Source: Patescibacteria group bacterium (GTDB lineage: Bacteria; Patescibacteriota; Microgenomatia; UBA12405). Taken from it: DNA of 64,000 nucleotides. A model generated the notes under the pieces. That model saw only the letters and a program-made list of their open reading frames with translations. It was not told the DNA's origin and did no database searches. Below are positions 11,473 to 36,996 of this stretch, piece by piece; the stretch's first letter is position 1, and each line of letters starts with the position of its first letter. The stretch is from contig WARW01000002.1 of NCBI GenBank assembly GCA_013387215.1, forward strand, positions 3,659 through 67,658, written 5' to 3'. The translations under genes were made by a program, and so were the position numbers.

Positions 11473-13118
11473 GACAAATCGATGAAACTTCCTGGAAATA
11501 TTGGCTACTGCGGGGCACACTATTTTTTAGTTTGGCTATTTTAATTTCTAACGTTTTTATTCTGGCGGTCATAAAAAATAAATATTATCAAAACATGGCC
11601 CGGGAAAATAAGGTGGTACAAAATACTTTGCCTGCAGAGAGAGGCCAAATTGTGGATCGAAAAGGCAGAGTTATTGCTAAAAGTGTTTATGAATATTTTA
11701 AAATGGATGGAACCAATAAGGTATATGAGGGTGCTGGTGATTTTCAGGGATATAAGTTTGAAGGCAAGGATTTATTGTTTGATCTGAAACGACAATATCC
11801 TTATGGCGAATCAACATCATTTATTTCCGGTTATGTGGCTAAAGTTAGCGATAGTGATGTGAAATCGGATACCTGCGCCACTAAACTTAGCGCTAATGAA
11901 ATGATTGGCCGCGGCGGAGTGGAAAGTTCAATGGACTGCAGATTGAGAGGCAGTGATGGTTTGAGATTAATGGAAGTAGATGCCAGAGGCAAATATATCC
12001 GCGAATTAGGCCGACAAGAACCAACGACAGGCCAAACTTTAAATTTATCAATTGATGCATATTGGCAGGATAAAATTTATAAATTATTGGATGGCCGAAA
12101 GGCAGTGGTTATTATCAGTGAACCAAAAACAGGAAAAATATTAAATTTAGTTTCCAGTCCAGCTTATGATCCGAATGCTTTTTCATTTCACCAGGATAAT
12201 CAGTTAATCAGCAGTTATTTGGATAACAAAGATGGTTTACCGCTTTTAAATCGAGCCGTTTCGGCTAGGTATGAACCTGGATCGGTTTTTAAAATTGTAA
12301 TGGCAACGGCTGGTTTGGAAAGTGGAGTGATTACAAAAGATTCGACTTATGATGATACGGGAATAATGAAAGTGGGGGATTATAGCTACACAAATTGGCA
12401 GTGGTCAAAGAGTGGAGTGACAAATGGAAATATAAATATTGTGACTGCATTGCAGAAATCAAATGACATATATTTTTATAAATTGGGAGGTGATTTGGGA
12501 GTGGATAGGATTAAAACTTGGATGGATAAATATGGCTATGGAGTCAAAACGGGAATTGAAATACCGGGGGAATTGGATGGAGTGGCACCAGATGAAACTT
12601 GGAAATTAAAAATAAAAGGCGAAAAATGGTATTTAGGTGATACTTATCATTTGTCCATAGGACAGGGAGATATGAGTGTAACGCCATTACAGGTGAATCA
12701 AATGACAGATATTATTGCCAATAAAGGAACTAAATGCAAAATGAGTTTGCTGAAAGATTCAAAACCTGAATGCCATGATCTGGGAATTAAAACTGAAAAC
12801 TGGCAAGCAATAATTGAGGGAATGAGAGCGGCCTGTAAACCAGGTGGAACGGCATGGCCTTTATTTAATTTTAAAACTCAAATTGCCTGCAAAACCGGAA
12901 CTGCGGAAGTGGGTGATGGCAGTAAGGACACTCATGCCTGGCTGACAGCATTTGCTCCGGCTGATAATCCGCAAATAGCGATCACGGTAATGGTGGAAAG
13001 AGGCGGGGAAGGGTCGGATGTGGCTGCTCCAATCGTTGGTGATATTTTAAAGGATTGGTTTGAGGAACCAAATACATTAGTGCCAAGATATAGTAAAAGC
13101 AAATTGAACTCAGAATAA
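11469..13118 (+). CDS. mrdA: penicillin-binding protein 2 / FtsI-family transpeptidase
   Basis: N-terminal TM, then a transpeptidase domain with SVFK (SxxK), KSND-like (SND) and KTGT motifs. Directly downstream of mreB with no mreC/mreD. Confidence 0.8.
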   Translation: MRQIDETSWKYWLLRGTLFFSLAILISNVFILAVIKNKYYQNMARENKVVQNTLPAERGQIVDRKGRVIAKSVYEYFKMDGTNKVYEGAGDFQGYKFEGKDLLFDLKRQYPYGESTSFISGYVAKVSDSDVKSDTCATKLSANEMIGRGGVESSMDCRLRGSDGLRLMEVDARGKYIRELGRQEPTTGQTLNLSIDAYWQDKIYKLLDGRKAVVIISEPKTGKILNLVSSPAYDPNAFSFHQDNQLISSYLDNKDGLPLLNRAVSARYEPGSVFKIVMATAGLESGVITKDSTYDDTGIMKVGDYSYTNWQWSKSGVTNGNINIVTALQKSNDIYFYKLGGDLGVDRIKTWMDKYGYGVKTGIEIPGELDGVAPDETWKLKIKGEKWYLGDTYHLSIGQGDMSVTPLQVNQMTDIIANKGTKCKMSLLKDSKPECHDLGIKTENWQAIIEGMRAACKPGGTAWPLFNFKTQIACKTGTAEVGDGSKDTHAWLTAFAPADNPQIAITVMVERGGEGSDVAAPIVGDILKDWFEEPNTLVPRYSKSKLNSE

Positions 13119-16720: not shown

Positions 16721-18967
16721 TTATCCTTGAGTTTTTTCTGGTTCTGGCGGTGCCGGCGGAGTGGAATTTTCTGAAGGTGATGGATAAAAATTTTGTTTTC
16801 TTTTGCCCCATCTTTCTTGAGAGATGTGAACCAATTTAGATCGTTGTTGATTTTTGCAAGCCAAAGGAGGCAGAGTGGCAGCATAGAATGGTTGAGTGGT
16901 TTCGGAATCAATAGAGAGTTTGCAGACGATTTGGTATTTACCAATTTTAATTAAATCTTCAGGAGGGAATTGGGGTCCGAATTCTTTAGCTAAAATAAAG
17001 GCATCTTGGTTGCCGACAACGAAAGACATAATGGAACCAACGTTGCCCAAAATAGCGTCTTGAATAGTGCGGTCAAGCTGGGACATGTATTGGTTGGCAA
17101 CAATCAAGTTAAGTTTGAATTTGCGGGCTTCAGAAAGAATTTTAATGAAGGCATCAGTGGCAAAGTTTTGGAATTCGTCAACGTATAAATAAAAATCAGA
17201 ACGGTCTTCGGCTGCCTGGAAAACCCGGTTCATAGCCGATAACTGGATTTGTGTAATCAACATAGCACCAAGCAAAGCAGAATTATCTTCACCAAGCCTT
17301 CCAGTGGAAAGATCAGCAATAAGAATTTTTTTCTGATCCATGATTTCCTGGATATTAATTTTAGATTTAGCATGAGCCACTGTGTTTCTGATATTGGTAG
17401 AGGAAATGAATTGACCAACTTTGTTTAAGATTGGGGAAACAGATTCGTTTTGAAATTTTGGATCCATTCTGGCAAACTCATTAAACCAGAAATTTCTTAA
17501 GGTTTGATTTTGAAGCTGGCTGACAACTTTTTCCCGATAATTTTTGTTGGTTAATATTTCCACGATATGGGTTAAGTCAGAGTTGGGAGTATTAACTAAA
17601 GTTAAAACTGTATTTCGTAAAATGTGTTCAAGCCGTGGACCCCAAGAAATATTGCCGTAAAGTTTTTTGAAAATAGAAATAACACCAGAAGCAATTAATT
17701 CTTTTTGAGATTCATTTTTAGCTTCCAAAACGTTTAAAGGATAAACATAATCAGGATCGGCAGGGTTGAAATAGCAGCAGTCATTAATACGATTGGAAGG
17801 AACATAATCAAGAATAGTATTGCATAAATCGCCGTGGGGATCGATAACAGCCACACCACGGCCTTTTCTAATATCATCAATCGCCATGTTGGCGATTAAA
17901 GTGGTTTTACCAGTACCGGATTTACCGATAATGTATGTGTGGCGGCGGCGATCTTCGCCTTCTTTAATACCAAAAATACAGTCTTTGTTGCGGTATTCAG
18001 TTTTAGCAAAAAAAGTAATTTTATTTTTTTCTTCAGGTGTTAAATTATCAGCAACTGGAAGATTTTCTGGCGGATCGGCATAAAGTTTTTTACCCCAAGC
18101 AATGTTTGGGAGTTTGGTCATTTGACCTGGAAAGTGCCAAACAGCAGAGAGTTCTTCAGTATTAAAGATTTGACCTTTGAGACTGGTATCGAAATTACGA
18201 TTAAGAATAGCTTTGAGAAGTTTTTTTCTTTTTAAAAATCCTGGAGTAAAAGATTTGATAAAATTGCCTCGAGGGTTGGTGTAGGCACCAAAAGAAGAGG
18301 AAACAGAAGCAATTAAACCTGGATTGTTGCTTAAAAGATTGGCTTGAGTGTAAAGACCGGGGAATTGAATTTTTTGTTCAAAAATGGCTTTGTCGGGATG
18401 AGCAGTACGAATATTTCTTTCCTTATCAACCAAAATTCCATTTTGAATAGTGCTGATAATTGAGCTTTGCCAATTTTTGGGAGCACCGCTTAGAAGAATT
18501 TGAAATAAGAAAAAGTCATTGGAATTGTTAGATCGAGAAAGGGGAGCTAGAACAGAAACCATTGGGTCGGTATCTTTAAAATCTTTGGCAGTTTTAATTG
18601 GGTAAGTATATGAACGAGCCAGACCAAGCTGAGTGAAAGAAATAGTGTTAAGTTTCTCGTCTGAGGCATGTTCAAGTAAATAATCTTTAGTGTCTTTGAG
18701 AACGGCAGTAGGGTATTGAGCGAGAATTTGGGAATGTAAAAATTCACGATTATCAGAAAGTGCAGCAATATAGAAATGTATTTGACCATTTAAAAGAACA
18801 ATTTCCAAGGAAACAATGGTCTTTTTTTTGCCAGCTAGTTTTTCCCAGAATGACAAATTGGAAATTTGGGTGAAATTAGACAGGAGGGCGGACATGGATT
18901 CAAAAGTATATTCATTAGTCTGAGGTAAACGGATTTCAAATATAGATAATTTTGCAGCGTCGGCCAT
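16721..18967 (-). CDS. soluble AAA-like ATPase of the TraG/TraD/VirD4 - HerA/FtsK superfamily (type IV coupling-protein-like, DUF87-like)
   Basis: 748 aa. Walker A IIGKSGTGKTT followed by VIDPHGD (characteristic of TrwB/VirD4/TraG-type and DUF87 ATPases). Walker B LYVDEFQNF. No N-terminal TM helices. About 330-aa N-terminal domain of unknown function. Confidence 0.55.
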   Translation of the reverse strand: MADAAKLSIFEIRLPQTNEYTFESMSALLSNFTQISNLSFWEKLAGKKKTIVSLEIVLLNGQIHFYIAALSDNREFLHSQILAQYPTAVLKDTKDYLLEHASDEKLNTISFTQLGLARSYTYPIKTAKDFKDTDPMVSVLAPLSRSNNSNDFFLFQILLSGAPKNWQSSIISTIQNGILVDKERNIRTAHPDKAIFEQKIQFPGLYTQANLLSNNPGLIASVSSSFGAYTNPRGNFIKSFTPGFLKRKKLLKAILNRNFDTSLKGQIFNTEELSAVWHFPGQMTKLPNIAWGKKLYADPPENLPVADNLTPEEKNKITFFAKTEYRNKDCIFGIKEGEDRRRHTYIIGKSGTGKTTLIANMAIDDIRKGRGVAVIDPHGDLCNTILDYVPSNRINDCCYFNPADPDYVYPLNVLEAKNESQKELIASGVISIFKKLYGNISWGPRLEHILRNTVLTLVNTPNSDLTHIVEILTNKNYREKVVSQLQNQTLRNFWFNEFARMDPKFQNESVSPILNKVGQFISSTNIRNTVAHAKSKINIQEIMDQKKILIADLSTGRLGEDNSALLGAMLITQIQLSAMNRVFQAAEDRSDFYLYVDEFQNFATDAFIKILSEARKFKLNLIVANQYMSQLDRTIQDAILGNVGSIMSFVVGNQDAFILAKEFGPQFPPEDLIKIGKYQIVCKLSIDSETTQPFYAATLPPLACKNQQRSKLVHISQERWGKRKQNFYPSPSENSTPPAPPEPEKTQG

Positions 18968-21034: not shown

Positions 21035-21952
21035 ATGGCAGAAAAAAAGAAAGTCATAACAAAAACCGTCAACCGTAGCGGCAAATCTATGGTTAAAAAA
21101 GCATTAGTGGTAAAAGCTAAACAACAAAGCAATATCACTGCGGAAAATATTAAAAAGCTTAACGAAAAGATCAAAGCAGACAAAGACGTGGCTGCAAAAG
21201 CTTTGGAAAAAGCAAATGAGACTGTTGAAGTGAAAAAGGGTGAAGAAGTTAAACCAGATAAAAAATATAATTTAACTGTTGGTTTAAAAGATTTATTAGC
21301 AGCCGGTTGCCATTTAGGCCACAAAGTTTCTAAGACTCATCCAAAAGCCAAGGAAAATATTTATACCCAAAAAGATGGAATTGAAGTCATGGATTTAATT
21401 AAAACCATGGATGCTTTGGATAAAGCCTGCAACTTCATTTACAACAATAAAAGAAACGGCAAACAAATCGTTTTAGTTGGAACCAAAAGACAAGCCCGAG
21501 AAGTTGTCCGAAGAGTAGCAATGGATGCTGGCGTTCCATATATCACTGATAGATGGTTAGGCGGCACTATTACCAACTGGGAACAAATTAAAAAGAACAT
21601 CAAGAAACTTGTCGAACTTAAAGAAGGTATCGAAAAAGGTAAATTCATCGAATCAACCAAAAAAGAGTTATCACAAATGAATAAAGAAATCGTCAGATTG
21701 GAAAAAATCGTTGGCGGTTTGACTAGCCTTGAAAAAATGTTTGATATTTTGTTTGTTGTGGATGCTGGTTTTGAAAAAACTGCTATCAAAGAAGCAAAAA
21801 TCCGACATGTAAAAACTATTGCTATCAGCGATACTGACAGCAATCCTTTCAGAGTTAACTTTGCAATTCCTGCAAATGATGACAGTGTTAAAAGCATTAG
21901 CTTGATTGTTGAAGAAATCGGTAAAGCTATAAAAGCTGCTGGCGTGAAATAA
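21035..21952 (+). CDS. rpsB: 30S ribosomal protein S2 with an ~78-aa Lys/Ala-rich N-terminal extension
   Basis: Core from ~residue 80 (LLAAGCHLGHKVSKTHPK, VLVGTKRQAREVV, RWLGGTITNW, FVVDAGFEKTAIKEAK) aligns to S2. The N-terminal 78 aa (MAEKKKVITKTVNRSGKS...KKYN) has no S2 counterpart. Confidence 0.85.
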   Translation: MAEKKKVITKTVNRSGKSMVKKALVVKAKQQSNITAENIKKLNEKIKADKDVAAKALEKANETVEVKKGEEVKPDKKYNLTVGLKDLLAAGCHLGHKVSKTHPKAKENIYTQKDGIEVMDLIKTMDALDKACNFIYNNKRNGKQIVLVGTKRQAREVVRRVAMDAGVPYITDRWLGGTITNWEQIKKNIKKLVELKEGIEKGKFIESTKKELSQMNKEIVRLEKIVGGLTSLEKMFDILFVVDAGFEKTAIKEAKIRHVKTIAISDTDSNPFRVNFAIPANDDSVKSISLIVEEIGKAIKAAGVK

Positions 21953-21974: not shown

Positions 21975-22433
21975 ATGGATCAAAAACAAATAATTGACTT
22001 AGTCAAAAAAATTCGAGCTGAGATGGGTCTTGGCATTATGGAAATTAAATCCGCTTTGGAAGAAGCAGATGGCGATGAAAAAAGAGCCAAAGAAATTTTA
22101 AAAGAAAAAGGTTTTAAAAAAGCTGAATCAAAAGCAGAAAGAGAAACTCATCAAGGCAGAGTGGCTACTTACACTCATTCTACCGGTAAAATCGGTGTAA
22201 TGTTTGAACTTTTGTGTGAAACTGATTTCGTGGCTAAGCATGAAGATTTTATTGCTGTCACTAAGGATATTTGTCTTCAAATTGCAGCTATGAATCCAGA
22301 AACTGTTGAAGATTTAATGAAACAAGAATTTGTTAAAGATCCAAGCAAAACCATTGAGGAAATGATTAAAGCTTTGAGCCACAAGTTTGGTGAAAATGTC
22401 AAAATCGGCAAAATGGCTAGATTTGAAATCTAA
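21975..22433 (+). CDS. tsf: elongation factor Ts (short form)
   Basis: UBA-like N-terminus (LVKKIRAEMGLGIMEIKSALEEADGD), the TDFVAK motif, and the conserved position after rpsB. Confidence 0.85.
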   Translation: MDQKQIIDLVKKIRAEMGLGIMEIKSALEEADGDEKRAKEILKEKGFKKAESKAERETHQGRVATYTHSTGKIGVMFELLCETDFVAKHEDFIAVTKDICLQIAAMNPETVEDLMKQEFVKDPSKTIEEMIKALSHKFGENVKIGKMARFEI

Positions 22434-22439
22434 AAAGAA

Positions 22440-23528
22440 TTGAATCTTTTAAAAGCCCTTCGGATAAAACCGAGGGGCTTTTTAGTTGCGGTATACTTTA
22501 TTCTAATGGATTTTTCAGCGTTTCAAAAAATTTTAATTAGAAATATTTTGAAAAAATATTTAGAAAACAAAGCCCGAATTAAGGGTGAAGTTTTTCGATG
22601 TAATGCATTGGAAGGAGAGTCGGCTTATGATATTTCTATAAATTCGGACATGACAGTGTCGTGTAATGCCCAAGATTATAATGGCAGCGGCCATATTGGC
22701 GATTTGAATAAAAGCAGTTTGAAGGAAATATTTGAAGGCAAAATAGTAAATGATTTTAGAAAGAAACTAGATGAAGGAAAACTGCCATTGATTATTTGTG
22801 CCAGATGCCCGGAACTTGTATCAGCTAAAAAAAATAAGATAAAAAATAAAAAAAATACGGTGCCAAGTGAAGGCATAATGATAGAAAATACGGTTGCCTG
22901 CGATATGATGTGCAAGTCTTGCGAAAGAGAAACGCTTTTGGGCTGCAGAAAAAAAATCAGCTTGAGTTTGAATGACTTGGAAAAGATTGCTAAAGAGGTT
23001 TTAGAAAATAAAATTAAATCGGTTTGTTTTTTTAATTTAGGGGAACCTTTTTTATCAAAAAATATTTATCAAGAGCTAGAGATTCTAAAAAAACATAATA
23101 AAAAGCTTCATATTATTGTGTCGACTAATGGATTGCATTTAGATACTGATGAAAAAAGAAAGGCAATAAAATATATAAATCATATCGCTTTTTCAATTGA
23201 TGGAGTGAATAATAAAATTCTAAGAAAATACCAAACCAACGGCAATTTTGAAACATCGTATGGAAACATGAAAGCTTTGGTTGATTACCGAAATAAAAAT
23301 AATTTAGGCGGGGTAATTGAATGGAAATATGTTTTATTTAATTGGAATGATAAAAAAGTCTATATCGATCAGGCAATAAAACTAGCTAAGGAAGCAGGGG
23401 TAAATAAGATTACTTTTTGGCCAACAGGGAATCCTTTGTGGGGAATTTCCTGGCGCTATTATGTTAAGAGTTATTTTAAAAAGTTTGGGTTAAAAAACAG
23501 CAAGGGTGTAATTGAAGTGAATTTATAG
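22440..23528 (+). CDS. radical SAM domain protein with an N-terminal Cys-rich region (unknown substrate)
   Basis: CDMMCKSC = CxxxCxxC radical-SAM cluster motif. GEPFL (GGEP-like SAM-binding motif). IIVSTNG. Extra N-terminal cysteines (C..C...CxxC). Occupies the position normally held by pyrH between tsf and frr. The start may be an internal Met. Confidence 0.55.
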   Translation: MNLLKALRIKPRGFLVAVYFILMDFSAFQKILIRNILKKYLENKARIKGEVFRCNALEGESAYDISINSDMTVSCNAQDYNGSGHIGDLNKSSLKEIFEGKIVNDFRKKLDEGKLPLIICARCPELVSAKKNKIKNKKNTVPSEGIMIENTVACDMMCKSCERETLLGCRKKISLSLNDLEKIAKEVLENKIKSVCFFNLGEPFLSKNIYQELEILKKHNKKLHIIVSTNGLHLDTDEKRKAIKYINHIAFSIDGVNNKILRKYQTNGNFETSYGNMKALVDYRNKNNLGGVIEWKYVLFNWNDKKVYIDQAIKLAKEAGVNKITFWPTGNPLWGISWRYYVKSYFKKFGLKNSKGVIEVNL

Positions 23529-25373: not shown

Positions 25374-27953
25374 TTGGTCGAATATTTGAGGAAAATGTCA
25401 AAATTTAGTTTATCTTTAGGTAAAAAGTTAGTATATAAATTGTATAAAAAGAGAGATGGATTGGTCCAAATCCCTTTAATAATTGGATTAGTGGTAATGG
25501 CTGTGGCTTTGCCGTTAGTAACAAAATTGACTCAACAGAACACTGAAAATAGAAGTAAAGCGTATGATGGATGTTCCGGTGCACCGCAACAAGCTTGTCA
25601 GTATATGAGTAACTGCACATGGAATGGAAGTAGTTGCACTTCCATAAAAACTTGTGCTTCTTGCAATGGAAATACGAGGTGTAGTGGAGATGTGGTTACT
25701 GTTTGTAATTGTGATGGTAATTGGGTTGGTAATACTCCCTGTGCCAGCGGTACTCATTGTGATAGTTCAGGTACTCATTGTGTAGCCTCAGCTCCAGCAG
25801 CAACTGCAACCCCAAGGCCTAGTGATTGCCGTACTTCAGGATGTCCATCAGGACAGACTTGTACAAGTGATGTCGGAATTTGGGACTGTGTTCCTAATCC
25901 AACTGCAACACCAAGACCTGCAAGCACTGGTGATTGTAGGACAAGCGGTTGTGCTAGGGGAACATGTACAAATATAAATTATATGGCTGGCCGAGAAGGA
26001 TCTCCGGCTGTTTATGTTTGCGTTACACCAACTCCCGTTCCTCCAACAGCAACTCCAAGACCTTATAATTGTCCTTCTAGGTGTAGTAGCAATAAAGGTT
26101 GTGCTACTGTAACTTATCAAAGTACTGATTCTGCCTGTAATAACGTTATTAGTGGAACACAAAACTACACTCCAAATTGTTCCTGCGGTCCTGTCTCTGG
26201 TGGTGATAATTCTATTTGTCAGCAAACCGGTTGTAAAAAACCAAATGGTGAGTCGTGTTCAACAGGTTCTGATTGTGCAAGTGCCATATGTTTTTCTGGT
26301 AAGTGTTCAGCTGCTGATTGTAGCGGTGGTTATGGAAACAAGCCTAATTCTTGCTCTTGTACTTATAGTTTCGAATGTGATTCAGGTAATTGTGTTAGCG
26401 GAAAATGTGTTGCTTCTGGTTCTTCAAATCCAACTTCAATACCAACTCAAGCTACCCAACACTATACGGTTTATAAAAATGGTTCTTGCCAGACTTCAGC
26501 TAATGCATATGTCAGTTTGACAGCATGTAATAATGATCCGCCAGTAAATAATTGTTACTCAAGCATGGCGGCTTGTAATAGTGCACATCCAGCAACTCCA
26601 ACCCAACACTATACGGTTTATAAAAATGGTTCATGCCAAACTTCTATAAATGAATACACAAGTTTGACAGCATGTAATAATGATCCGCCAGTAAATAATT
26701 GTTACTCAAGCATGGCGGCTTGTAATAGTGCACATCCAGTTGCTTCAGTACCAACATATACATGTGAAACAAACGGCGATCATTGTTATACCACCCAAGT
26801 TAATGGAAGCATTCCAACTTCCTGTTTAACCTACACTAATACATATAAACAATTGTATGGAAGCGGTTCTGGTACTTGTGCTAGTGGACTTTGCTGTAAG
26901 ACACCTGTTGCTTGTACATGTTCAAGCGGCTACTCAACTTCAGTAACTAGCTGTCCATCAGGATCCACTTTAGATACGACAAATTCTCTAAGTTGTGGAT
27001 CTGGAGTTAAATGCGGTAAGTGTATCACTGCAACTTCTACTACTGATCCTGAATGTGTTGGTCATGCTAACAGCACAGGATTTTGTTCAGGAACAACTTA
27101 TTTAAGATGCGAAGCAGGAAAAGTAGCTTACACTTTGGCTAATGCTGCAGCTTGTCCAGTAACTCCAACTGATGCTTGTAATAATTATGGAAGCAGTATT
27201 CCAACTTGTATGAGCCAGTCCAATTGTACTTGGAATGGAACTGCCTGTGTAACTAAGCCAGTGTGCGACAAACTATGCGGCAGCAATAAATATGGCGACA
27301 TTGTTTGTAGTGGAAATGCAGTTAAGATTTGTCAATGTGATGGAACTTGGAGCAGCACAGTTCCATGTGCCAGCGGATTAGTTTGTGACAGTACGGCAAC
27401 TAAATGTGTAGCTCCGGCAACTGCTGACCCTGGTATCACTTTTTCTAATTTTAATGTAGTGGCTAATAGTTCAACATCCGTGAGAGTGACTGGCAGTATG
27501 ACAGCAACAAATGGCGGATTATTACAAATGTATTGGTTTAAAGTAGACGGTAATGACATTCAAAAGTTAACTTTGCAAAACCCTGATGGAAATGGCGGTT
27601 TTGTGGGAAGAACTTCATATGATTTCACCAATATTTCCGTAAATAATTTAAGTACTGGAAATCATAATGTTGCAGTTTGTGGAACTGTAAAATCTACTGA
27701 TGGCAGTAAGGAAGTGAATGCTTGTACTGATGTAAAAGCTGTAAGTTTAGTAAATCCTCCAACTGCAGCACCAGGAAGATGCGATGTTTGTTCAACATTT
27801 GCTACATCAAGAAATAATGGAGATTTTGATTGTAATGGAACTTCGAACTTAACAGACTTCTCAGTATGGAAAGATCTGTATTTTAATTGTTCAGGAGTAG
27901 TTTCAACTAATGATTTTTCCATATGGAAGGAAAAATATCTTATTAATAAATAA
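25374..27953 (+). CDS. large Cys-rich modular secreted/surface protein with PT-rich linkers, internal tandem repeats, a C-terminal beta-sandwich-like domain and a dockerin-like tail
   Basis: 859 aa. N-terminal TM/signal segment (IPLIIGLVVMAVALPLV). Two ~65-aa Cys-rich modules (CxYMSNCTWNGSxCT...C.CDG.W....PCASG..CDS....CVA) near the N- and C-terminus. PTATPRP linkers. 2 x 49-aa tandem repeat. C-terminal GDFDCNGTSNLTDFSVWK ... DFSIWK resembles paired dockerin Ca-binding loops and helices. Confidence 0.55.
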   Translation: MVEYLRKMSKFSLSLGKKLVYKLYKKRDGLVQIPLIIGLVVMAVALPLVTKLTQQNTENRSKAYDGCSGAPQQACQYMSNCTWNGSSCTSIKTCASCNGNTRCSGDVVTVCNCDGNWVGNTPCASGTHCDSSGTHCVASAPAATATPRPSDCRTSGCPSGQTCTSDVGIWDCVPNPTATPRPASTGDCRTSGCARGTCTNINYMAGREGSPAVYVCVTPTPVPPTATPRPYNCPSRCSSNKGCATVTYQSTDSACNNVISGTQNYTPNCSCGPVSGGDNSICQQTGCKKPNGESCSTGSDCASAICFSGKCSAADCSGGYGNKPNSCSCTYSFECDSGNCVSGKCVASGSSNPTSIPTQATQHYTVYKNGSCQTSANAYVSLTACNNDPPVNNCYSSMAACNSAHPATPTQHYTVYKNGSCQTSINEYTSLTACNNDPPVNNCYSSMAACNSAHPVASVPTYTCETNGDHCYTTQVNGSIPTSCLTYTNTYKQLYGSGSGTCASGLCCKTPVACTCSSGYSTSVTSCPSGSTLDTTNSLSCGSGVKCGKCITATSTTDPECVGHANSTGFCSGTTYLRCEAGKVAYTLANAAACPVTPTDACNNYGSSIPTCMSQSNCTWNGTACVTKPVCDKLCGSNKYGDIVCSGNAVKICQCDGTWSSTVPCASGLVCDSTATKCVAPATADPGITFSNFNVVANSSTSVRVTGSMTATNGGLLQMYWFKVDGNDIQKLTLQNPDGNGGFVGRTSYDFTNISVNNLSTGNHNVAVCGTVKSTDGSKEVNACTDVKAVSLVNPPTAAPGRCDVCSTFATSRNNGDFDCNGTSNLTDFSVWKDLYFNCSGVVSTNDFSIWKEKYLINK
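26457..26750 (+). repeat. 2 x 147-bp tandem DNA repeat inside the CDS (encodes QHYTVYKNGSCQTS...MAACNSAHP modules)
   Basis: Copy 1 starts ~26457, copy 2 at 26604. The 3' ~77 nt of each copy is identical. Confidence 0.8.
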
Positions 27954-27957
27954 TTAA

Positions 27958-29166
27958 ATGTTCAACAGCAATAACATGAAAAAAATAAATTACACCGCCG
28001 TATTCTGGGTACTGACAAGTATGGCACTAATAGGTGGTTTAGCATTGGCAAGCCAGAGCCAAGATACGAGAAGGGGAGCGGCATTTTCAGCAGGCAGGTT
28101 AATGCTTTTACCAAACGATAAAATCAGCTTTACTGTTGGTCAATCCCAAAACGTTCAATTATGGGTAAATTCAGGGAATGCATCGGCTAATGTTGATGCT
28201 ATTAGAACCAATATCTGTTTTAATAAGAACTTTCTTAATTTAAATGATCCGGTTGTGGAAAATAATATTAAACAAGATCCAGCTTTTGATACTGTGATCG
28301 CAACTTTAAAAGATGGAAACACTCAATGTTTAGATTTATCAATATTATCAGTATCTAAGAAAGCATCAAAAAATGGATTATTTAAGATTGCTGATATCAC
28401 TTTTAAGGGTGTAGGAACAGGATCTGGTCCAATTGATATTATTAAAGATAAAACTGAAATTTCAGGTGACAATGCCGGTAGTTTAGATAAAACAATTAGT
28501 ATTGATTCAGTTACCGGAACTACTTTTGAAGTTACTCCTCAAACTTCAGTAGCAGTACCAACTACACCGCCACCAGCCGGAACACCACTTTTAAGTTTTA
28601 GATTTGCTTATGCGGGCGTGAAGGCAAATGCAGAGTGTTCTATTGGAGCAAAATGGCCAGTAAAGATTATGGTTAGGGGAAATGGAAAAATTTCAAAAGC
28701 TTATACTGCAATTCCAACTTTGGATGGAACAAATTCTCGAGGAGAGGCTGTTTATAAAGTTACAAATTTGGCTTTAACTGATTTCGATCAAAAAAGTGGT
28801 TTGGCTGTTTTTTTGAAAGGACCAGAACACGCTCAGATGAAATATGGAGTTAATGCACAGGCTAGTAACTACACAAAAGCAGATGGAGAAATAACTATTA
28901 CCGCTGATGCATCTACAACTCCAATTTTGGATTTTACTAATTATCCAATAATGCCAGGTGATGTTCGAGGTTCAGCAAGCGGTGGCCAAGATGGAATAAT
29001 AAATGTAGTCGATTTTAGTTATATTAAACAAGCAGTGTCGGCCAGATCTACTGTTCCAGCTGGTGGTGGTTTGGATGCTGACTTAAACGGAGATTGTATG
29101 GCAAATACCGGCGATGTTCAGTTATTTAAAAATTCCCTTATTGAGAAGCAGGATCAATTGTATTAA
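27958..29166 (+). CDS. secreted protein with an N-terminal cohesin-like domain and a C-terminal dockerin-like module
   Basis: Signal/TM (VFWVLTSMALIGGLALA). Cohesin-like hallmarks (TVGQSQNVQLWVNS..., ...GLFKIADITFKGVGTGSGPIDII). C-terminus QDGIINVVDFSYIKQ ... DLNGDCMANTGDVQLFKN fits the D-x-N-x-D-G-x-x-N-x-x-D Ca-loop pattern twice. Confidence 0.45.
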   Translation: MFNSNNMKKINYTAVFWVLTSMALIGGLALASQSQDTRRGAAFSAGRLMLLPNDKISFTVGQSQNVQLWVNSGNASANVDAIRTNICFNKNFLNLNDPVVENNIKQDPAFDTVIATLKDGNTQCLDLSILSVSKKASKNGLFKIADITFKGVGTGSGPIDIIKDKTEISGDNAGSLDKTISIDSVTGTTFEVTPQTSVAVPTTPPPAGTPLLSFRFAYAGVKANAECSIGAKWPVKIMVRGNGKISKAYTAIPTLDGTNSRGEAVYKVTNLALTDFDQKSGLAVFLKGPEHAQMKYGVNAQASNYTKADGEITITADASTTPILDFTNYPIMPGDVRGSASGGQDGIINVVDFSYIKQAVSARSTVPAGGGLDADLNGDCMANTGDVQLFKNSLIEKQDQLY

Positions 29167-29184
29167 AAATTTTATAAGGCAATT

Positions 29185-29811
29185 ATGAAAGACAATGAAA
29201 TTTTAAAATTATTTATCCCGCTTGTTGCAGTAGTGGTAATTTTTGAAAGTGTTTTGTTAGTTTCTAAATTAACCAATAAAACTCCAAGCGTGCCGAGAAC
29301 TGTAAATAATGTAAGTGTAAATGAGGCTGGAAGTTCGGCCCAAGTTTCTGAAAATAAACCTGTGGCTCTAGATTTACTTTTCGGAACAAAAACTAAGGAA
29401 ATGAAAGTTGGTCAAAGTTATGCAGTTGAAGTGGATATGCTTGGAAAAGATAATTATTCTTTTGATGGTGCAGATTTGTATGTTAAATACGATCCAAGTG
29501 CTTTTAATGTTAGTAATTTAAGTTTTGATAGCAAAATACCAAAACCAACATTTAGTAAAGTTAGCCAACAGAAGGGAATGGTAGTTGCTAATTATTTATT
29601 CCCATCTCAAAATGGTTACAGAATTGCGAAAAATGAATTTGCTTCAGTAATGAAATTTGACGTAACTCCCAAGAAGCTTGGAAATTTCGATTTTGAAATT
29701 ACTACTGGTAATCAAGACAAAGAATCTGCTACCATGTTTATAGAAAGTGTTACGAGTCAGGCTCTACCTTTCTCCAGTAATAAATTAAATGTTAATGTTT
29801 TGAATAAATGA
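29185..29811 (+). CDS. membrane-anchored cohesin-like domain protein
   Basis: N-terminal TM (LFIPLVAVVVIFESVLLV). VGQSYAVEVDMLGKDNYSFDGADLYVKYDPSAFNVSNL matches the cohesin consensus (vGdtvtVpVsl...adf.lkYDPsvLev). TGA stop overlaps the next ATG. Confidence 0.45.
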   Translation: MKDNEILKLFIPLVAVVVIFESVLLVSKLTNKTPSVPRTVNNVSVNEAGSSAQVSENKPVALDLLFGTKTKEMKVGQSYAVEVDMLGKDNYSFDGADLYVKYDPSAFNVSNLSFDSKIPKPTFSKVSQQKGMVVANYLFPSQNGYRIAKNEFASVMKFDVTPKKLGNFDFEITTGNQDKESATMFIESVTSQALPFSSNKLNVNVLNK

Positions 29812-30509
29812 GAAAGTCAAGTCTTTTTATAAGCATATTTTTTCTTGGAGCATTTTTAGTATTAGCTAAAGGCAGTAAAGCTACTTTTGCTGCTCCACAC
29901 TTAACATTAACTCCTAGTACTGGAACTTATAATGTCAATGATACTTTTACAGCAACTGTTGGAGTCGATTCAGATACTGAAGGTTCTAATGCTGTTGATG
30001 TGTGGGCAACTTTTGATGCAACAAAATTAGATGTCGTTTCAATAGTTAAAGCTGCTGTGCCAGCATTTAATTTTGATATGACTCCTCATTTTGACAATAC
30101 TACGGGTAAATTTGATTTTTCATGTTCTCCAAGCGATATGAGCAATTTGAGCATTAAACCAATAAAAGGGGATTTGGCTGTAATTACTTTTAAAGCCAAA
30201 GTGGCTGGAAATGCTCCTGTGAATTTTACTTGTCAACAAGGAGTAACAATTGATTCAAATATTTTTAATGCTACTGCTTCTGATGTAATTAGCTGTCCCG
30301 CAAACCAAAGCGGATCTTTCACGATTGGTGCTGCAACAACTACAACTGGAACAACAAATGCTCCTGCAGCAACAACAACAACAACAATTGCGGCCACAAC
30401 TGCTACATCATCTGAGTTGCCAAAAACTGGTAGTCTTAGTACTACAATTGGTTTAGCTACTTTCGGATTGGTGAGTGTTCTAGGCGCATTTCTTCTGAGA
30501 TTTCTATGA
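29808..30509 (+). CDS. cohesin-like domain protein with a C-terminal LPXTG sortase cell-wall sorting signal
   Basis: Signal peptide (LFISIFFLGAFLVLAKG). Cohesin-like core (VDVWATFDATKLDVVSIV...GDLAVITFKAKVAGNAPVNF). T-rich linker. LPKTG, then hydrophobic stretch SLSTTIGLATFGLVSVLGAFLL, then RFL tail. TGA stop overlaps the next ATG. Confidence 0.55.
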   Translation: MRKSSLFISIFFLGAFLVLAKGSKATFAAPHLTLTPSTGTYNVNDTFTATVGVDSDTEGSNAVDVWATFDATKLDVVSIVKAAVPAFNFDMTPHFDNTTGKFDFSCSPSDMSNLSIKPIKGDLAVITFKAKVAGNAPVNFTCQQGVTIDSNIFNATASDVISCPANQSGSFTIGAATTTTGTTNAPAATTTTTIAATTATSSELPKTGSLSTTIGLATFGLVSVLGAFLLRFL

Positions 30510-31273
30510 AAGGTAAGATTAATCTAAAAACTATTATTGTTTTTGTAATATTGATTTTAGTGGTGATTTTAAGTGTTTTGGGGGTGAAAACTGTTAGAAC
30601 ATATATGAGTGGAGCAACAGCAGGAATAGAGCCAAAAAATATTCAAGAAGTTTTAAGCGACGATGGAAAGAGTGCTACTATTACTTGGGTTTCTGACAAA
30701 GAGTCGATGGGTACTGTTTATTATGGAACCAATGCTGCCAGTATTCTTGTAACGTCAATTGAAAGTACTCAAACTACTAATCATGCTGTGGTTCTAAATA
30801 ATTTAAGAGCCAATACTAAGTATTATTTTAAATTAAAAATTGAAGAGTCTGATTTTGATAATAATGGTATGCCGTTTAGTTTTACTACAAAAGGTTCGAG
30901 TGATGCTAATACGGATACACCAGAAAGGATGCCTAGTCGAGTTATGAATAATCCATCTCCAGAAGTGTCTTCACCATCAGGTATGGTCTTATCTCCAACA
31001 ATTGCCTTGTCTCCTGTTTCTACAACTTCAAGCACAACATCCCCATCATCAGGTGCAGCTTCATGCAATAAATCAACTGACTATAATAATGATGGAGTTA
31101 CAAATACTATGGATTATTTATATTGTATGAAAAATGGAAGTGGCGGCAGTACAACTACAGCGGCTCCGACTGGCGCAAGTGTGGGTGTTTGCAAACACGA
31201 TGTAGATTATAATAATGATGGAATCGTAAATACTTTAGATTATATTAAGTGTTTACAAAGCAACAAAAAATAA
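30506..31273 (+). CDS. membrane-anchored protein with an FN3/purple-acid-phosphatase-N-like domain and two canonical dockerin-type Ca-binding loops
   Basis: N-terminal TM. ITWVSDKESMGTVYYGT...TKYYFKL is FN3-like. DYNNDGVTNTMDY and DYNNDGIVNTLDY match D-x-N-x-D-G-x-x-N-x-x-D exactly, each bracketed by Cys residues. Confidence 0.5.
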   Translation: MKGKINLKTIIVFVILILVVILSVLGVKTVRTYMSGATAGIEPKNIQEVLSDDGKSATITWVSDKESMGTVYYGTNAASILVTSIESTQTTNHAVVLNNLRANTKYYFKLKIEESDFDNNGMPFSFTTKGSSDANTDTPERMPSRVMNNPSPEVSSPSGMVLSPTIALSPVSTTSSTTSPSSGAASCNKSTDYNNDGVTNTMDYLYCMKNGSGGSTTTAAPTGASVGVCKHDVDYNNDGIVNTLDYIKCLQSNKK

Positions 31274-34161: not shown

Positions 34162-36996
34162 ATGGATAGAATAATGCCAGATGCTGATATTGAAAAATAT
34201 GACGGAATAGATGGCGTGGTCAAAAGCTTGGTAAAAGTTCAATCAGAAAATATTGACCTAGAATCACAGCCAACTTTGTGTGACGTTTTAAGAAGAATTT
34301 TTATTAGAGAGGGAATAAAAGATGTAGAGATAAATAATAAAAATATTGATCTTATTATTGATAAATTATCGAATTTTGATGAGTCAGTTTCTAAAAAGGA
34401 AAATGAATTGTTGAAAAAAGCAGCTAATAAAAAAGAAGAATTGGAAACAAAAACAGAGGGTTCGGTGGTTCCAGTAGCTGTAATCAGAAAATTGGTGGGG
34501 GAATATCAATTATATTTAGATAATGAAGTATCAGAAGAAGAAGCATTGAAACTAGTGGAAAAAAGGAATAAAAATGTTGTCTCTAAAAAAAATGTTGAAA
34601 CCTTAATTAAACGGCAAAGAGAGATGTATTGGGAGAATTTAAAAGCGATTCAGAATTTTAAAGCAGAAAGTGAAGGTCGACCTAAATCGGAAGATGTGAT
34701 TTTAATGAAGGCTGACGAAAAGAAAGATGAAAATGCCAGTAATCTTGAGAAAAAGATGGCGATGACTTTGGCAGAAGAGCAATTGGTGTTAGAAGAAACG
34801 ATTGAGGGTCAGATTAGTGGTGTAGAAGCAGAAGAATTGAGTCGTAAGATTTTTGAAAAAGTGGTGATTCCTGGAATCTTTAATGATAATGGAACTTTAG
34901 ACGTTAAAAAAATATTAGAGTTTGCCAAACAAACTGATGGGTTAGATATTAATTCTGAAAGACAAGAATTATTAGTGGAAACTGTAAGTAAAGTAAATAA
35001 TTCTTTAGATATAAATATTAAAATCGATCAGGAAGCTGATAGGGTGATGGAAATAGTAATGGGTACTTTTAAAAGTGATGAAACACTTGAGGAAGTTTTT
35101 GAAAAACAAGAAGAAGCAATTCGAGTTTCTGTGGTAAGAATGGTGGAAAGAACTATAGATGATAGAACCTTAAATACTAATACTGAGGTTGAAAGAACAA
35201 TAAGCGAAATAAAAAGTTTATACAAAGAAAGTACTGGTTTGGATTTAGATCCAAGTTTAGATCTTAAAATGGAAACAGCGATCAAAGGGGCAGCAGTTGA
35301 GGTGGAAAATTGGATTGGCTCTAGAGCAGAGGAAATAAATCGTTATCGAACTGAAAAATTAAGCAACACTATTTATACAAAAATTATTTATCAGAATCCG
35401 GATATCAGCCAGGCAAAAAAAACGGCAGTCAAAGAATATGGAGATTTGGTATCAAATATTTATTATTACAAATCGGAAATAGAAAGGCATAAAAATGAGG
35501 CAGTTGATAATGTATTATCAAAAGGATTTTCGCCAGAAAAAACTGCTAATGCTTACAGTGATTTGAGAGGTTTATATTCTATTTTAAAAATGAATCCCGG
35601 TGATTTTAATGGCCTTATTTATAAATATCGGCAATTAAAATTTGAGTTGAAAGGAATTGAACTGCCGTATGAAATTAAGGAATTAAAATCTTTTGAAGGT
35701 TTAATGTCTTTAGCTTCAGAAGTCCCTGAAGTAAAAAACTTAATTAATTTCACCCAAAAATATATTAAAGTTTACGATACAGTTAATGCAATATCGGGCG
35801 GGTTTTTGGAAAAATTGGGTCTTAAACAATTGGGGATGTCGGCATTAGATTCGGTTGGTGGTCAAGCGATGAGTAAATTTGTGACCAGTTCTTTGGAAGT
35901 ATTTGCTGAGCAGGGTGTAAAGAAAGGAGCATGGGCGATTTTGAAAGGAATTATAAGCGGGGGAGTTGAGGTTGGAGCTGGGGCAGCAGAAGGAGCCGCT
36001 GGGGCAGCCGCGACTGGAGGTGTGGCAGGGGCAGTGGCAGCATTTCAAGCGATTCCAGTGGTCGGACAGGTAATTTTAATTGTGGTTGTGGTTGTGGTGG
36101 CACTTATAAAAATAATTAAACCAGTAATTAAAATTGCTACTTCAGTTTTAAAAGCAATGGGAGTTGATTTTGATAAAATGAAGGCGTTTTTTCAGGAATA
36201 CTTAGGGGGATTTTTTGGGGGAATACTTAGTTGGGGGGTAAAAACAGGAATATTAATAATTAGTATTCCAGCGGCTTTGTCTATGGTTTCAATATCAGCA
36301 GTTGTCGGGCCAGTGGTGATATTTTTAATGATTGGACTTTTTGCTTATACAACTTTAAACGGAAACTTAGTGTCTTCTTTAGTGCCACCAGTAAGAATGG
36401 GCGGTGGACAAAATCAATCAACTGCACCAGGTGGTGTACTGGTTCCAGGAGAAAATAATGATTTTACAGGGGAGTGTAGCGTGGGACAATATGTTCAATT
36501 AACACGACAATGCGATCCAGCTTGGGCTAATATGAGTTTGCCCGGGGGTTGCACAATTTGTTATGCAGGGTGCGGACCAACAAGTGTATCGATGATTTTG
36601 CAACGTCAAAGTCCCGATAATACGGTCGTTAATTTATTAAAAGATCCGATATACAGCAGTGTTGATTGTAATGGGTCAGGCATGGATCAACATGAAAAAA
36701 TATTAAGAAAGTATTTGGGCGATGATGCTATAAGTTATGGTTCATCATCACTTTGTACTCCTAAAGATATTGCCAGTTGGATATGTGATGGAAAAATAGT
36801 TTTGGTAGCGGCTCAGTTTTTTAATTCTAAAGGCACTGGCGGTCATTTTGTTTTAGGGGTGGCGGTTGATGGGGGACAGATAGTAACGGCTGATCCATAT
36901 TATGGAACTAGAAGTCCTTTTGATGGAGATACTAGCTATGGACATGTTGATTTAAGTCAAGATATTTGGTGTTTATTAGTTGATCCAAAAAAATAA
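34162..36996 (+). CDS. large membrane protein: ~620-aa acidic/coiled-coil cytoplasmic N-terminal region, Gly/Ala-rich segment, ~4 TM helices, and a C-terminal extracytoplasmic peptidase-C39-like (papain-fold) domain
   Basis: 944 aa. TM segments (VILIVVVVVVALIKIIKPVI, ILIISIPAALSMVSISAVVGPVVIFLMIGLFAY). The C-terminal domain has CYAGCGPTSVSMIL (catalytic Cys context as in Peptidase_C39_2 N.CGPTS) plus a downstream GGHFVLG..D (His/Asp). Confidence 0.5.
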   Translation: MDRIMPDADIEKYDGIDGVVKSLVKVQSENIDLESQPTLCDVLRRIFIREGIKDVEINNKNIDLIIDKLSNFDESVSKKENELLKKAANKKEELETKTEGSVVPVAVIRKLVGEYQLYLDNEVSEEEALKLVEKRNKNVVSKKNVETLIKRQREMYWENLKAIQNFKAESEGRPKSEDVILMKADEKKDENASNLEKKMAMTLAEEQLVLEETIEGQISGVEAEELSRKIFEKVVIPGIFNDNGTLDVKKILEFAKQTDGLDINSERQELLVETVSKVNNSLDINIKIDQEADRVMEIVMGTFKSDETLEEVFEKQEEAIRVSVVRMVERTIDDRTLNTNTEVERTISEIKSLYKESTGLDLDPSLDLKMETAIKGAAVEVENWIGSRAEEINRYRTEKLSNTIYTKIIYQNPDISQAKKTAVKEYGDLVSNIYYYKSEIERHKNEAVDNVLSKGFSPEKTANAYSDLRGLYSILKMNPGDFNGLIYKYRQLKFELKGIELPYEIKELKSFEGLMSLASEVPEVKNLINFTQKYIKVYDTVNAISGGFLEKLGLKQLGMSALDSVGGQAMSKFVTSSLEVFAEQGVKKGAWAILKGIISGGVEVGAGAAEGAAGAAATGGVAGAVAAFQAIPVVGQVILIVVVVVVALIKIIKPVIKIATSVLKAMGVDFDKMKAFFQEYLGGFFGGILSWGVKTGILIISIPAALSMVSISAVVGPVVIFLMIGLFAYTTLNGNLVSSLVPPVRMGGGQNQSTAPGGVLVPGENNDFTGECSVGQYVQLTRQCDPAWANMSLPGGCTICYAGCGPTSVSMILQRQSPDNTVVNLLKDPIYSSVDCNGSGMDQHEKILRKYLGDDAISYGSSSLCTPKDIASWICDGKIVLVAAQFFNSKGTGGHFVLGVAVDGGQIVTADPYYGTRSPFDGDTSYGHVDLSQDIWCLLVDPKK

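Follow-up and report, generated by a model that had tools for sequence, protein, structure and literature searches.

A predicted LPXTG-anchored single-cohesin protein in a conserved five-gene cassette of Shapirobacteria

Results

Gene structure and C-terminal sorting signal

The window, that is, the whole 64-kb stretch of DNA that we analysed, contains an open reading frame on the forward strand at 29808-30509, which starts with ATG and encodes a secreted single-cohesin protein of 233 amino acids whose translation ends in TTATSSELPKTGSLSTTIGLATFGLVSVLGAFLLRFL before the stop codon. A predicted Sec signal peptide occupies about residues 1-28 (29808-29891, forward strand) and consists of MRK, a hydrophobic core and ATFA, with AP following the cleavage site, which was read from the sequence by the -3/-1 rule rather than computed. 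This region forms an N-terminal helix (residues 2-20) in the AlphaFold2 (AF2) model, and the ..AAP.LTL junction is kept across the family alignment. The cohesin-fold beta-sandwich follows at residues 31-174 (29898-30329), and after it comes a low-complexity linker rich in Thr and Ala (residues 175-203, 30330-30416), which may serve as a wall-spanning spacer. Residues 182-192 of the linker have pLDDT values below 50 and no secondary structure in the AF2 model, and both the length and the sequence of the linker are hypervariable in the 43-sequence family alignment.

The original prediction placed an LPKTG pentapeptide, a hydrophobic segment of about 22 residues and a positively charged tail at the C-terminus. 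The first two elements are present as described. The pentapeptide lies at residues 204-208 (30417-30431, forward strand) in the context SSELPKTG, with predicted cleavage between T207 and G208, and it is the only LP.TG among the 53 window proteins taken as genes. When the residues of these 53 proteins were shuffled, a complete sorting signal appeared in 1 of 2000 sets. The hydrophobic segment, SLSTTIGLATFGLVSVLGAFLL, covers residues 209-230 (30432-30497) and would retain the protein in the membrane; its 22 residues are mostly hydrophobic, none is charged, and AF2 gives a helix at 210-232. The tail is the minimal sequence R-F-L followed by the stop codon (30498-30509). An Arg is thus present, but R231 at position -3 is the only basic residue, so that the charge is weaker than had been implied. 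Most close homologues retain Lys or Arg at this position, which a distant ..FLFV clade lacks; over 99 family representatives, a basic tail residue is kept in 70 and absent in 29.

These elements had also been called a classical Gram-positive sorting signal. The motif and the hydrophobic segment agree with that description, but the one-Arg tail and the profile scores fall short of it. The 233-residue protein reached 16.1 bits with Pfam Gram_pos_anchor (PF00746; gathering cut-off 20) and 13.7 bits with TIGR01167 (cut-off 15.9). In the family, PF00746 matched 20 of 43 members at E <= 0.01 (best 2.8e-6), TIGR01167 matched 19 of 43 at E <= 0.1, and NF053819 matched 33 of 43. No family member matched sorting models other than the LPXTG type (PEP-CTERM, GlyGly-CTERM, PGF-CTERM and similar) at E <= 0.1.

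Cohesin domain

The description of the protein as cohesin-like is borne out by its predicted structure. The AF2 model has a mean pLDDT of 83.5, with block means in the core mostly between 84 and 98. The 50 PDB matches listed by Foldseek were almost all cohesin modules or cohesin-dockerin complexes with a probability of 1.00; the best listed match was 6kgf_C (E 7.7e-10, TM 0.75), and TM reached 0.77 among the matches listed. On this model, residues 31-174 are a cohesin fold, a nine-stranded jelly-roll beta-sandwich. The domain carries two invariant cysteines, C142 and C163. Pfam Cohesin (PF00963) gave no match to the 233-residue protein at E <= 0.1; it matched 30 of 43 family members, the best at 1.1e-11, and a family profile matched a ScaB cohesin (PDB 4ums) at E 0.001.

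Conservation of the motif

The LPxTG tail is conserved in the relatives. LPx[T/A/S]G followed by a hydrophobic tail was found in all 45 homologues (41 LPxTG, 3 LPxAG and 1 LPxSG), which include proteins annotated as 'LPXTG-motif cell wall-anchored protein' (JGI) and 'cohesin domain-containing protein [Candidatus Shapirobacteria bacterium]' (NCBI). An LPxTG-like motif was likewise present in all 46 further metagenome-locus genes that could be read to the stop codon (40 LPxTG, 3 LPxAG, 1 LPxTA, 1 VPxSG and 1 VPxSA), and the motif occurs in 103 of about 121 short 50%-cluster representatives, with 65 LPxTG, 17 LPxSG and 10 LPxAG. Accordingly, a minority of members have A or S in place of T. Only 12 columns are invariant in the 43-sequence alignment; L204, P205 and G208 are among them, and the Thr is conserved in at least 90%. 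In the 104-sequence family alignment, which extends down to 26% identity, P205 is the sole invariant column. A search with the 104-sequence profile was dominated by low-complexity matches and brought in few new members, one of them P0326 on a Shapirobacteria contig of 735 kb.

The ectodomain evolves fast, with 34-50% identity in relatives whose housekeeping proteins are 50-83% identical. Its identity to the closest named Shapirobacteria is about 40%, and the motif is nevertheless kept. These alignments speak for very strong purifying selection on the motif, as sortase recognition would predict.

Five-gene cassette

The gene belongs to a conserved, translationally coupled cassette of five genes on the forward strand (25374-31273), which encode the LPXTG cohesin, a second cohesin and three proteins with dockerin-like loops, and which recurs in Shapirobacteria/Microgenomates genomes. 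The first gene (25374-27953) encodes a secreted, Cys-rich protein of 859 residues that contains internal repeats and, at the C-terminus, a dockerin-like pair (DFDCNGTSNLTD ... STNDFSIWK), as read from its sequence and loops; Pfam gave no match to this protein. The second (27958-29166) encodes a secreted protein of 402 residues with a C-terminal dockerin-like module (Dockerin_1 19.2 bits, below the cut-off), and its orthologues have canonical dockerin loops DIDGNGVIDGVD in locus L004 and a Dockerin_1 score of 21 bits in locus L005. In locus L202 (JAQWEN010000001.1, 735 kb), a single upstream protein of 588 residues with a precomputed Dockerin_1 match stands in place of these two genes.

The third gene (29185-29811) encodes a second cohesin-like protein of 208 residues, which has an N-terminal hydrophobic helix and no LPXTG motif and scored 22.8 bits with Pfam Cohesin against a cut-off of 24.1. 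It overlaps the LPXTG gene by ATGA, and its position is conserved in L001, L004 and L202. Paralogy of the two cohesins was considered and rejected, as they show no detectable pairwise similarity. The fifth gene (30506-31273), the ATG of which overlaps the TGA of the LPXTG gene (again ATGA), encodes a protein of 255 residues that begins with a transmembrane segment or signal. The protein further has two Ca-binding loops of the dockerin type, DYNNDGVTNTMD at residue 192 and DYNNDGIVNTLD at residue 234, and an fn3-like domain (Pfam Pur_ac_phosph_N, 33.7 bits). Its Dockerin_1 score of 18.4 bits is below the cut-off, and the L001 orthologue exceeds it with 30.9 bits against 22.9. A dockerin-loop ORF lies directly downstream of the LPXTG cohesin gene in 36 of 39 related loci.

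In most loci examined, the cassette sits in a housekeeping neighbourhood, with rpsB-tsf-frr-rseP before it and rpsU-yqeY-ybeY-dnaX after it. Close relatives that bear the cassette are JAQWEN01 (Shapirobacteria, GCA_028704885.1) and Ga0395526_000001, a contig of 1.117 Mb. A GH94-like gene was seen upstream in one distant locus only, L203.

No GH, CBM, PL or CE domain was found above threshold in the five cassette proteins or their orthologues, in which the only carbohydrate-related matches were NPCBM, CBM_AftD and Glucodextran_C, all far below the cut-off. Other catalytic domains likewise gave no above-threshold match in any cassette protein. Dockerin-bearing glycoside hydrolases or CBMs, the cargo that marks a cellulosome, were therefore not found among the partners, which are an fn3-dockerin protein, a Cys-rich repeat protein and a protein of about 400 residues of unknown fold. 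Since no cassette protein has a confident catalytic domain, the predicted cohesin-dockerin complex looks adhesive or structural rather than cellulolytic.

Search for the sortase

No sortase was detected in the 64-kb window by a TLxTC regular expression, by Pfam on all ORFs of at least 120 residues or by a six-frame hmmsearch with a profile built from 120 real CPR sortases (best E in the window 0.88), and Pfam on the ORFs of the window found no exosortase or rhombosortase. There was also no sortase within 10 kb of the cassette in about 60 related loci (L001-L005, L202-L203 and 53 metagenome loci; 0.48 Mb in total, with loci of up to 20 kb). On viral contigs, degenerate DNA patterns of the sortase motif gave only chance matches among the loci listed (about 80). 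One sortase-bearing locus (L035/L199) had a tetranucleotide correlation of r = 0.973, but it was rejected as a relative because its MreB is only 35% identical to that of the window.

Beyond these loci, three synthetic consensus-like sortase sequences, used as bait only and not as evidence, retrieved 7732 PF04203 proteins. Among the 120 listed, every named one came from CPR, including a Microgenomates MAG, and none lay on a contig that equalled a cassette-bearing one in length, Ga0395526_000001 included. The scan of genome contigs for the P0141 sortase subgroup returned Kazan, Berkelbacteria, Peregrinibacteria, Gracilibacteria, MAGs labelled 'Saccharibacteria' and one Microgenomates MAG, and no Shapirobacteria sortase; sortases are present in complete Kazan and Berkelbacteria genomes. 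All five CPR sortases that we tested passed the generic sortase model TIGR01076 and were below the class C, D, E, F and GN cut-offs. In the literature, the sortase family is described as near-ubiquitous in Microgenomates (PMC6744442), and a closed/complete Microgenomates genome encodes a sortase (PMC7143001). For the sortase step that was originally proposed for this lineage, support at the lineage level, as drawn from databases and these published statements, is good.

As for the acceptor, MreB and a PBP2-type transpeptidase are encoded in the window at 10333-13118 on the forward strand (MreB_Mbl 335.9 bits; Transpeptidase 224.2 bits together with PBP_dimer). These two genes indicate peptidoglycan synthesis in the organism, and it is to peptidoglycan that a sortase product would be expected to be attached.

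Discussion

We consider it probable that the product of the gene is displayed on the surface of a bacterium of the Shapirobacteria (Microgenomates, CPR/Patescibacteria) as an anchoring protein with a single cohesin, and that it is fixed there by a sortase. During biogenesis, the protein would be exported by the Sec pathway with removal of its N-terminal signal peptide, and the hydrophobic segment together with the Arg would keep the unprocessed chain in the membrane such that LPKTG lies on its outer side. In the next step, modelled on SrtA substrates, a membrane-bound sortase, whose gene would lie elsewhere in the genome, would cut between T207 and G208 and transfer the protein to a peptidoglycan precursor. 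The Thr-rich linker would then span the wall, and the cohesin would bind at least one dockerin of the 859-, 402- and 255-residue proteins, which would tether a small cohesin-dockerin complex to the surface of the cell. What the locus shows is the domains and the linkage of their genes, and it is from these that we infer the cohesin-dockerin pairing.

The searches around the gene bear on another reading, in which the C-terminus is an uncleaved membrane anchor and LPxTG is kept for some other reason, for example as a helix-capping or juxtamembrane structural element. The missing sortase in the window and near the gene in related loci, the minimal or absent charged tail, the plain transmembrane helix (210-232) given by AF2 and the tolerated changes from T to A or S are all consistent with it. 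However, a structural spacer would not hold L-P-x-[TSA]-G invariant while all the flanking linker residues vary; moreover, motif, spacing and tail together form the hallmark by which LPXTG anchor models detect about half of the members, and sortases are widespread in the superphylum. We consider an uncleaved anchor unlikely. Considering that the five CPR sortases fall below all the class cut-offs and fit the generic model only, the biochemistry of the CPR envelope may be atypical, and processing by an exosortase, an archaeosortase, a rhombosortase-type or an unknown CPR-specific protease, with attachment to something other than peptidoglycan such as a lipid or an S-layer glycan, could also account for a motif that is degenerate at the T position. 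The chances of this are slim, as the family matches LPXTG models and none of the other C-terminal sorting models at E <= 0.1, the window has no exosortase or rhombosortase, and sortase substrates have just this tripartite anatomy. An LPKTG placed by chance before a hydrophobic C-terminus, to which the sub-threshold scores of the single sequence might point, is practically negligible and is refuted by the universal conservation of the motif across more than 150 relatives, besides the shuffling result (1/2000).

Anchoring of LPXTG proteins by sortases is textbook knowledge, and surface anchors of this kind are known; relatives of the protein already carry annotations as LPXTG-anchored or as cohesin proteins. 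The closest analogue is ScaE, the cell-surface anchoring scaffoldin of Ruminococcus flavefaciens, which has a single type III cohesin and LPXTG (PDB 2zf9). Both consist of a signal peptide and a single cohesin module that a linker joins to an LPXTG sorting signal, and 2zf9 is among the listed structural matches of the AF2 model, although the sequence identity is only about 15%. On the other hand, the host of ScaE is a Firmicute and that of the 233-residue protein an ultrasmall CPR bacterium. Unlike ScaE, the protein has partners without recognisable glycoside hydrolases or CBMs and one basic residue in its tail, and its cognate sortase would be of a CPR clade that fits none of the class models C, D, E, F and GN.

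With the classical SrtA substrates described by PF00746 and TIGR01167, the protein shares an LPXTG motif, about 20 hydrophobic residues, one or more basic residues, a signal peptide at the N-terminus and, ahead of the motif, a low-complexity stretch for spanning the wall. In contrast to them, it scores below the curated cut-offs, ends in R-F-L instead of a multi-Lys/Arg tail, and belongs to a family that tolerates S or A at the Thr position. In the SLH-anchored scaffoldins of Clostridium/Acetivibrio cellulosomes (OlpA, OlpC, SdbA and ScaB types), which are among the best structural matches (4dh2, 3ul4 and 4ums), cohesins also tether dockerin-bearing proteins to the surface; these scaffoldins are attached non-covalently through SLH domains, whereas the 233-residue protein has no SLH domain and LPXTG is its anchor.

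Proteins of the same order-level lineage, Candidatus Shapirobacterales, were reported from Olkiluoto groundwater, where the metaproteome contained the products of adjacent genes of a Shapirobacterales MAG that are annotated as weak matches to cohesin and dockerin domains, and where proteins of other CPR with LPXTG or cell-wall-anchor proteins as closest database matches were very abundant (PMC9123182). That study (ISME J 2022) read the cohesin and dockerin proteins as a cellulosome and mentioned no LPXTG anchor or sortase (PMC9123182). Very probably, those genes form a related cassette, if not the same one.

Within the cassette, the original prediction had made the LPXTG cohesin the base of the assembly. 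This is plausible from the gene order because dockerin-bearing proteins are encoded on both sides of it, and the 208-residue cohesin with its N-terminal membrane helix (29185-29811) would be an alternative base. A broader proposal, which we put forward tentatively and hold to be rather doubtful, is that the LPXTG cohesin forms the base, anchored in the wall, of a conserved 'adhesion complex' of cohesins and dockerins that has no enzymes and is typical of Shapirobacterales and related Microgenomates, that it is attached by a CPR-specific sortase clade outside the class models C, D, E, F and GN, and that the cell, as an episymbiont, uses it to adhere to a host cell or a substrate and not to degrade cellulose.

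In summary, the 233-residue protein is a predicted sortase substrate that is most likely fixed to the wall and holds the dockerin-bearing proteins encoded beside its gene. As the cassette has no visible enzyme cargo, the presence of cohesin and dockerin genes in a CPR genome should not by itself be taken as evidence of cellulolysis. The finding provides a concrete, conserved example of a predicted sortase substrate from CPR, whose cell surface is sparsely known, and it supports the view that the envelope of Microgenomates is monoderm and peptidoglycan-bearing with covalent protein display. Additionally, the SSELPKTG peptide, the cohesin domain and the three candidate dockerins provide a testable handle on how a surface complex may be built in an uncultured ultrasmall bacterium.

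Sorting signal and its conservation

The open reading frame at 29808-30509 (+), with an ATG start and 233 residues, ends in TTATSSELPKTGSLSTTIGLATFGLVSVLGAFLLRFL before the stop codon. LPKTG lies at nt 30417-30431 and is followed by 22 residues, all uncharged and mostly hydrophobic, and then by Arg-Phe-Leu. On translation, the pentapeptide and hydrophobic segment are as the original prediction described, but its positively charged tail comes down to a single Arg. LP.TG occurs once in the 53 window proteins taken as genes, and residue shuffling of these proteins, repeated 2000 times, produced a full sorting signal once. On the window protein alone, PF00746 (16.1 bits versus a cut-off of 20) and TIGR01167 (13.7 versus 15.9) fell just short.

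A database search with the window protein gave 45 homologues with identities between 100% and 35%, all of which end in LPx[T/A/S]G and a hydrophobic tail (41 LPxTG, 3 LPxAG, 1 LPxSG). Among 53 metagenome loci, every one of the 46 genes readable to the stop has an LPxTG-like motif, which is LPxTG proper in 40. Conservation in relatives, a check proposed for the motif, was thus found in both sets. The homologues' names include "LPXTG-motif cell wall-anchored protein" at JGI and [quoted passage not shown] at NCBI; the LPXTG cohesin belongs to a known type, and its relatives are already annotated so.

Only twelve columns are invariant in the 43-sequence family alignment, L204, P205 and G208 being three of them; T207 is retained in at least 90%, and the Thr-rich linker just N-terminal to the motif varies freely in length and sequence. 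LPXTG-type models match 33 (NF053819), 20 (PF00746) and 19 (TIGR01167) of the 43 members, and other C-terminal sorting models gave zero matches among them. A basic residue after the hydrophobic segment is missing in about 30% of family members.

We also ran an index-free profile search against 1.84 billion cluster representatives, which yielded 8305 at E <= 1e-3 and 106 at E <= 1e-30; by this measure the family is far larger than the 45 homologues. The motif lies within the last 45 residues in 103 of about 121 short representatives (65 LPxTG, 17 LPxSG, 10 LPxAG), and for the family the motif is LPx[T/S/A]G, looser than a strict LPxTG. When 104 of these representatives were aligned, down to 26% identity, the motif Pro is the sole invariant column of the entire protein.

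Protein architecture

The AlphaFold2 model, for which the family alignment was the input, has a mean pLDDT of 83.5. Its N-terminal helix (residues 2-20) we read as a putative signal peptide; residues 31-174 form a confident beta-sandwich, and a disordered linker leads to a C-terminal helix at 210-232. Nearly all of the 50 PDB matches listed by Foldseek are cohesin modules or cohesin-dockerin complexes (best match E 7.7e-10, TM 0.75; Ruminococcus flavefaciens ScaE among those listed), bearing out the description of the protein as cohesin-like. Pfam Cohesin matches 30 of the 43 family members, the window sequence being without a match, and C142 and C163 are invariant Cys in their alignment. Relatives of the cohesin module include giant multi-cohesin proteins (P0168 and other long representatives of the profile search), one of which, at 2276 aa, was matched in 10 stretches and carries a pair of dockerins at its C-terminus; these relatives thus include larger proteins that resemble scaffoldins.

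The cohesin-dockerin cassette

The LPXTG cohesin is the fourth gene of a five-gene cassette at 25374-31273 (+). Gene 1 (25374-27953, +) encodes a Cys-rich protein of 859 aa with C-terminal dockerin-like loops, gene 2 a protein of 402 aa with a dockerin at its C-terminus (Dockerin_1 below cut-off in the window protein), gene 3 a cohesin-like protein of 208 aa that has a hydrophobic helix at its N-terminus, and gene 5 an fn3 protein of 255 aa with two calcium loops of canonical dockerin type, DYNNDGVTNTMD and DYNNDGIVNTLD. The gene 5 orthologue of the related locus L001 passes Pfam Dockerin_1 (30.9 bits versus 22.9), and in 36 of 39 loci the LPXTG gene is directly followed by a dockerin-loop ORF. 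ATGA overlaps join genes 3 and 4 and genes 4 and 5, which suggests translational coupling. Pfam gave no confident match to a catalytic domain, carbohydrate-active or otherwise, in any of the five proteins. The gene 1 protein, which is secreted, has a near-perfect internal duplication (HYTVYKNGSCQTS.N.Y.SLTACNNDPPVNNCYSSMAACNSAHP twice), zero Pfam or NCBIfam matches, and orthologues of 561 to 919 aa.

Relatives, including a 1.117-Mb JGI contig and the 735-kb Candidatus Shapirobacteria contig (locus L202), keep the cassette and its flanks, rpsB-tsf-frr-rseP upstream and rpsU-yqeY-ybeY-dnaX-recR-cysS downstream. The upstream flank is visible in loci L005 and L202, other genes lie upstream in L001 and L004, and the distant member L203 has a different genomic context. 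Identity to the named Shapirobacteria contig is 61-81% for housekeeping proteins and about 40% for cassette proteins; the sequences point to fast-evolving ectodomains on a slow anchor.

Other features of the window

EF-Ts (21975-22433, +) has only 152 aa, as in L005 and L202, and ribosomal protein S2 (21035-21952, +) is extended at its N-terminus by about 85 aa ahead of its Pfam match. A radical SAM protein (22440-23528, +), with a SPASM-like segment N-terminal to its core, lies between tsf and frr; this gene is missing from that position in L005, and L202 has an unannotated 216-aa gene there. A VirD4/TrwB-like coupling ATPase (16721-18967, -; 748 aa) adjoins topA, as in L202. Monoderm-type T4SS have been reported in Patescibacteria, and the ATPase is consistent with such a system. 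A 944-aa protein (34162-36996, +) with a weak C-terminal C39-like peptidase domain is conserved and fast-evolving (37% identity to L001; neighbouring genes 70-84%). All 2-kb bins of the whole window have a positive GC skew (0.04-0.37) and the majority of genes are on the + strand, resembling the strand composition disparity of a closed Microgenomates genome (PMC7143001).

Sortase search

The anchoring step implied by the original prediction called for a sortase gene, and none was found in the 64-kb window or near the cassette in relatives. No real gene of the window has a TLxTC motif, no window ORF of at least 120 aa matches Pfam Sortase, and a CPR-sortase profile found no sortase in the six-frame translation (best E 0.88). 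In about 60 related loci, no sortase lies within 10 kb of the cassette.

CPR sortases were gathered with three synthetic consensus-like baits, themselves not evidence, which pulled out 7732 genuine members of PF04203; of the 120 listed, all those with a name are from CPR, and a Microgenomates MAG supplied one of them. They typically contain the motifs GHSS and [LI][TS]LMTC. The five sortases tested (P0046, P0072, P0118, P0141 and P0143) all pass the generic TIGR01076 (51-75 bits) and none reaches the class C, D, E, F or GN cut-offs (at most 83 bits versus at least 140), representing an unclassified clade with GHSS and TLMTC motifs. A scan of species-representative genomes found such sortases in 376, including complete Kazan and Berkelbacteria, with no Shapirobacteria among the 80 loci listed. 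The sortase gene lies 2-3 kb upstream of an MreB gene in 25 of 80 CPR genomes (L006-L085), and sortase locus L199 reads Sua5-sortase-NUDIX ... MurA-MreB-GT4-GT4-WecG; neither sortase nor MurA lies upstream of the window MreB (10333-11472).

The lineage-level claim of a sortase is made because of published work. One dataset shows CPR enrichment of the PF04203/K07284 family (average length apparently 231 aa, going by the columns of the table), which is present in 1020 CPR genomes versus 12 non-CPR genomes; the family is described there as "near ubiquitous in Microgenomates" (PMC6744442). A sortase gene is also known from a closed Microgenomates genome (PMC7143001).

Discussion

The sorting signal is real and most probably serves for sortase-dependent wall anchoring of a cohesin, which is predicted to tether the dockerin-bearing partners of its operon. 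The main rival, in which the C-terminus is a membrane anchor that stays uncleaved, appears improbable. For wall anchoring, MreB and a PBP2-type transpeptidase are also encoded in the window, and a peptidoglycan acceptor is therefore expected. The textbook analogue of this LPXTG cohesin is R. flavefaciens ScaE, a single-cohesin scaffoldin that is attached covalently by sortase via LPXTG and binds dockerins of gene products encoded nearby (PMC5301203).

A groundwater metaproteome contained products of neighbouring genes of a Shapirobacterales MAG that are annotated, on weak domain matches, as cohesin and dockerin proteins. Very abundant in that dataset were proteins from other CPR that match LPXTG or cell-wall-anchor proteins most closely in databases (PMC9123182). 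In a cultivated Saccharibacterium, one dockerin-domain protein is essential (PMC10633639). We regard the enzyme-free cohesin-dockerin cassette as more interesting than the anchor itself; conserved as it is, it may possibly, though this is unproven, represent an adhesion complex of Shapirobacterales.
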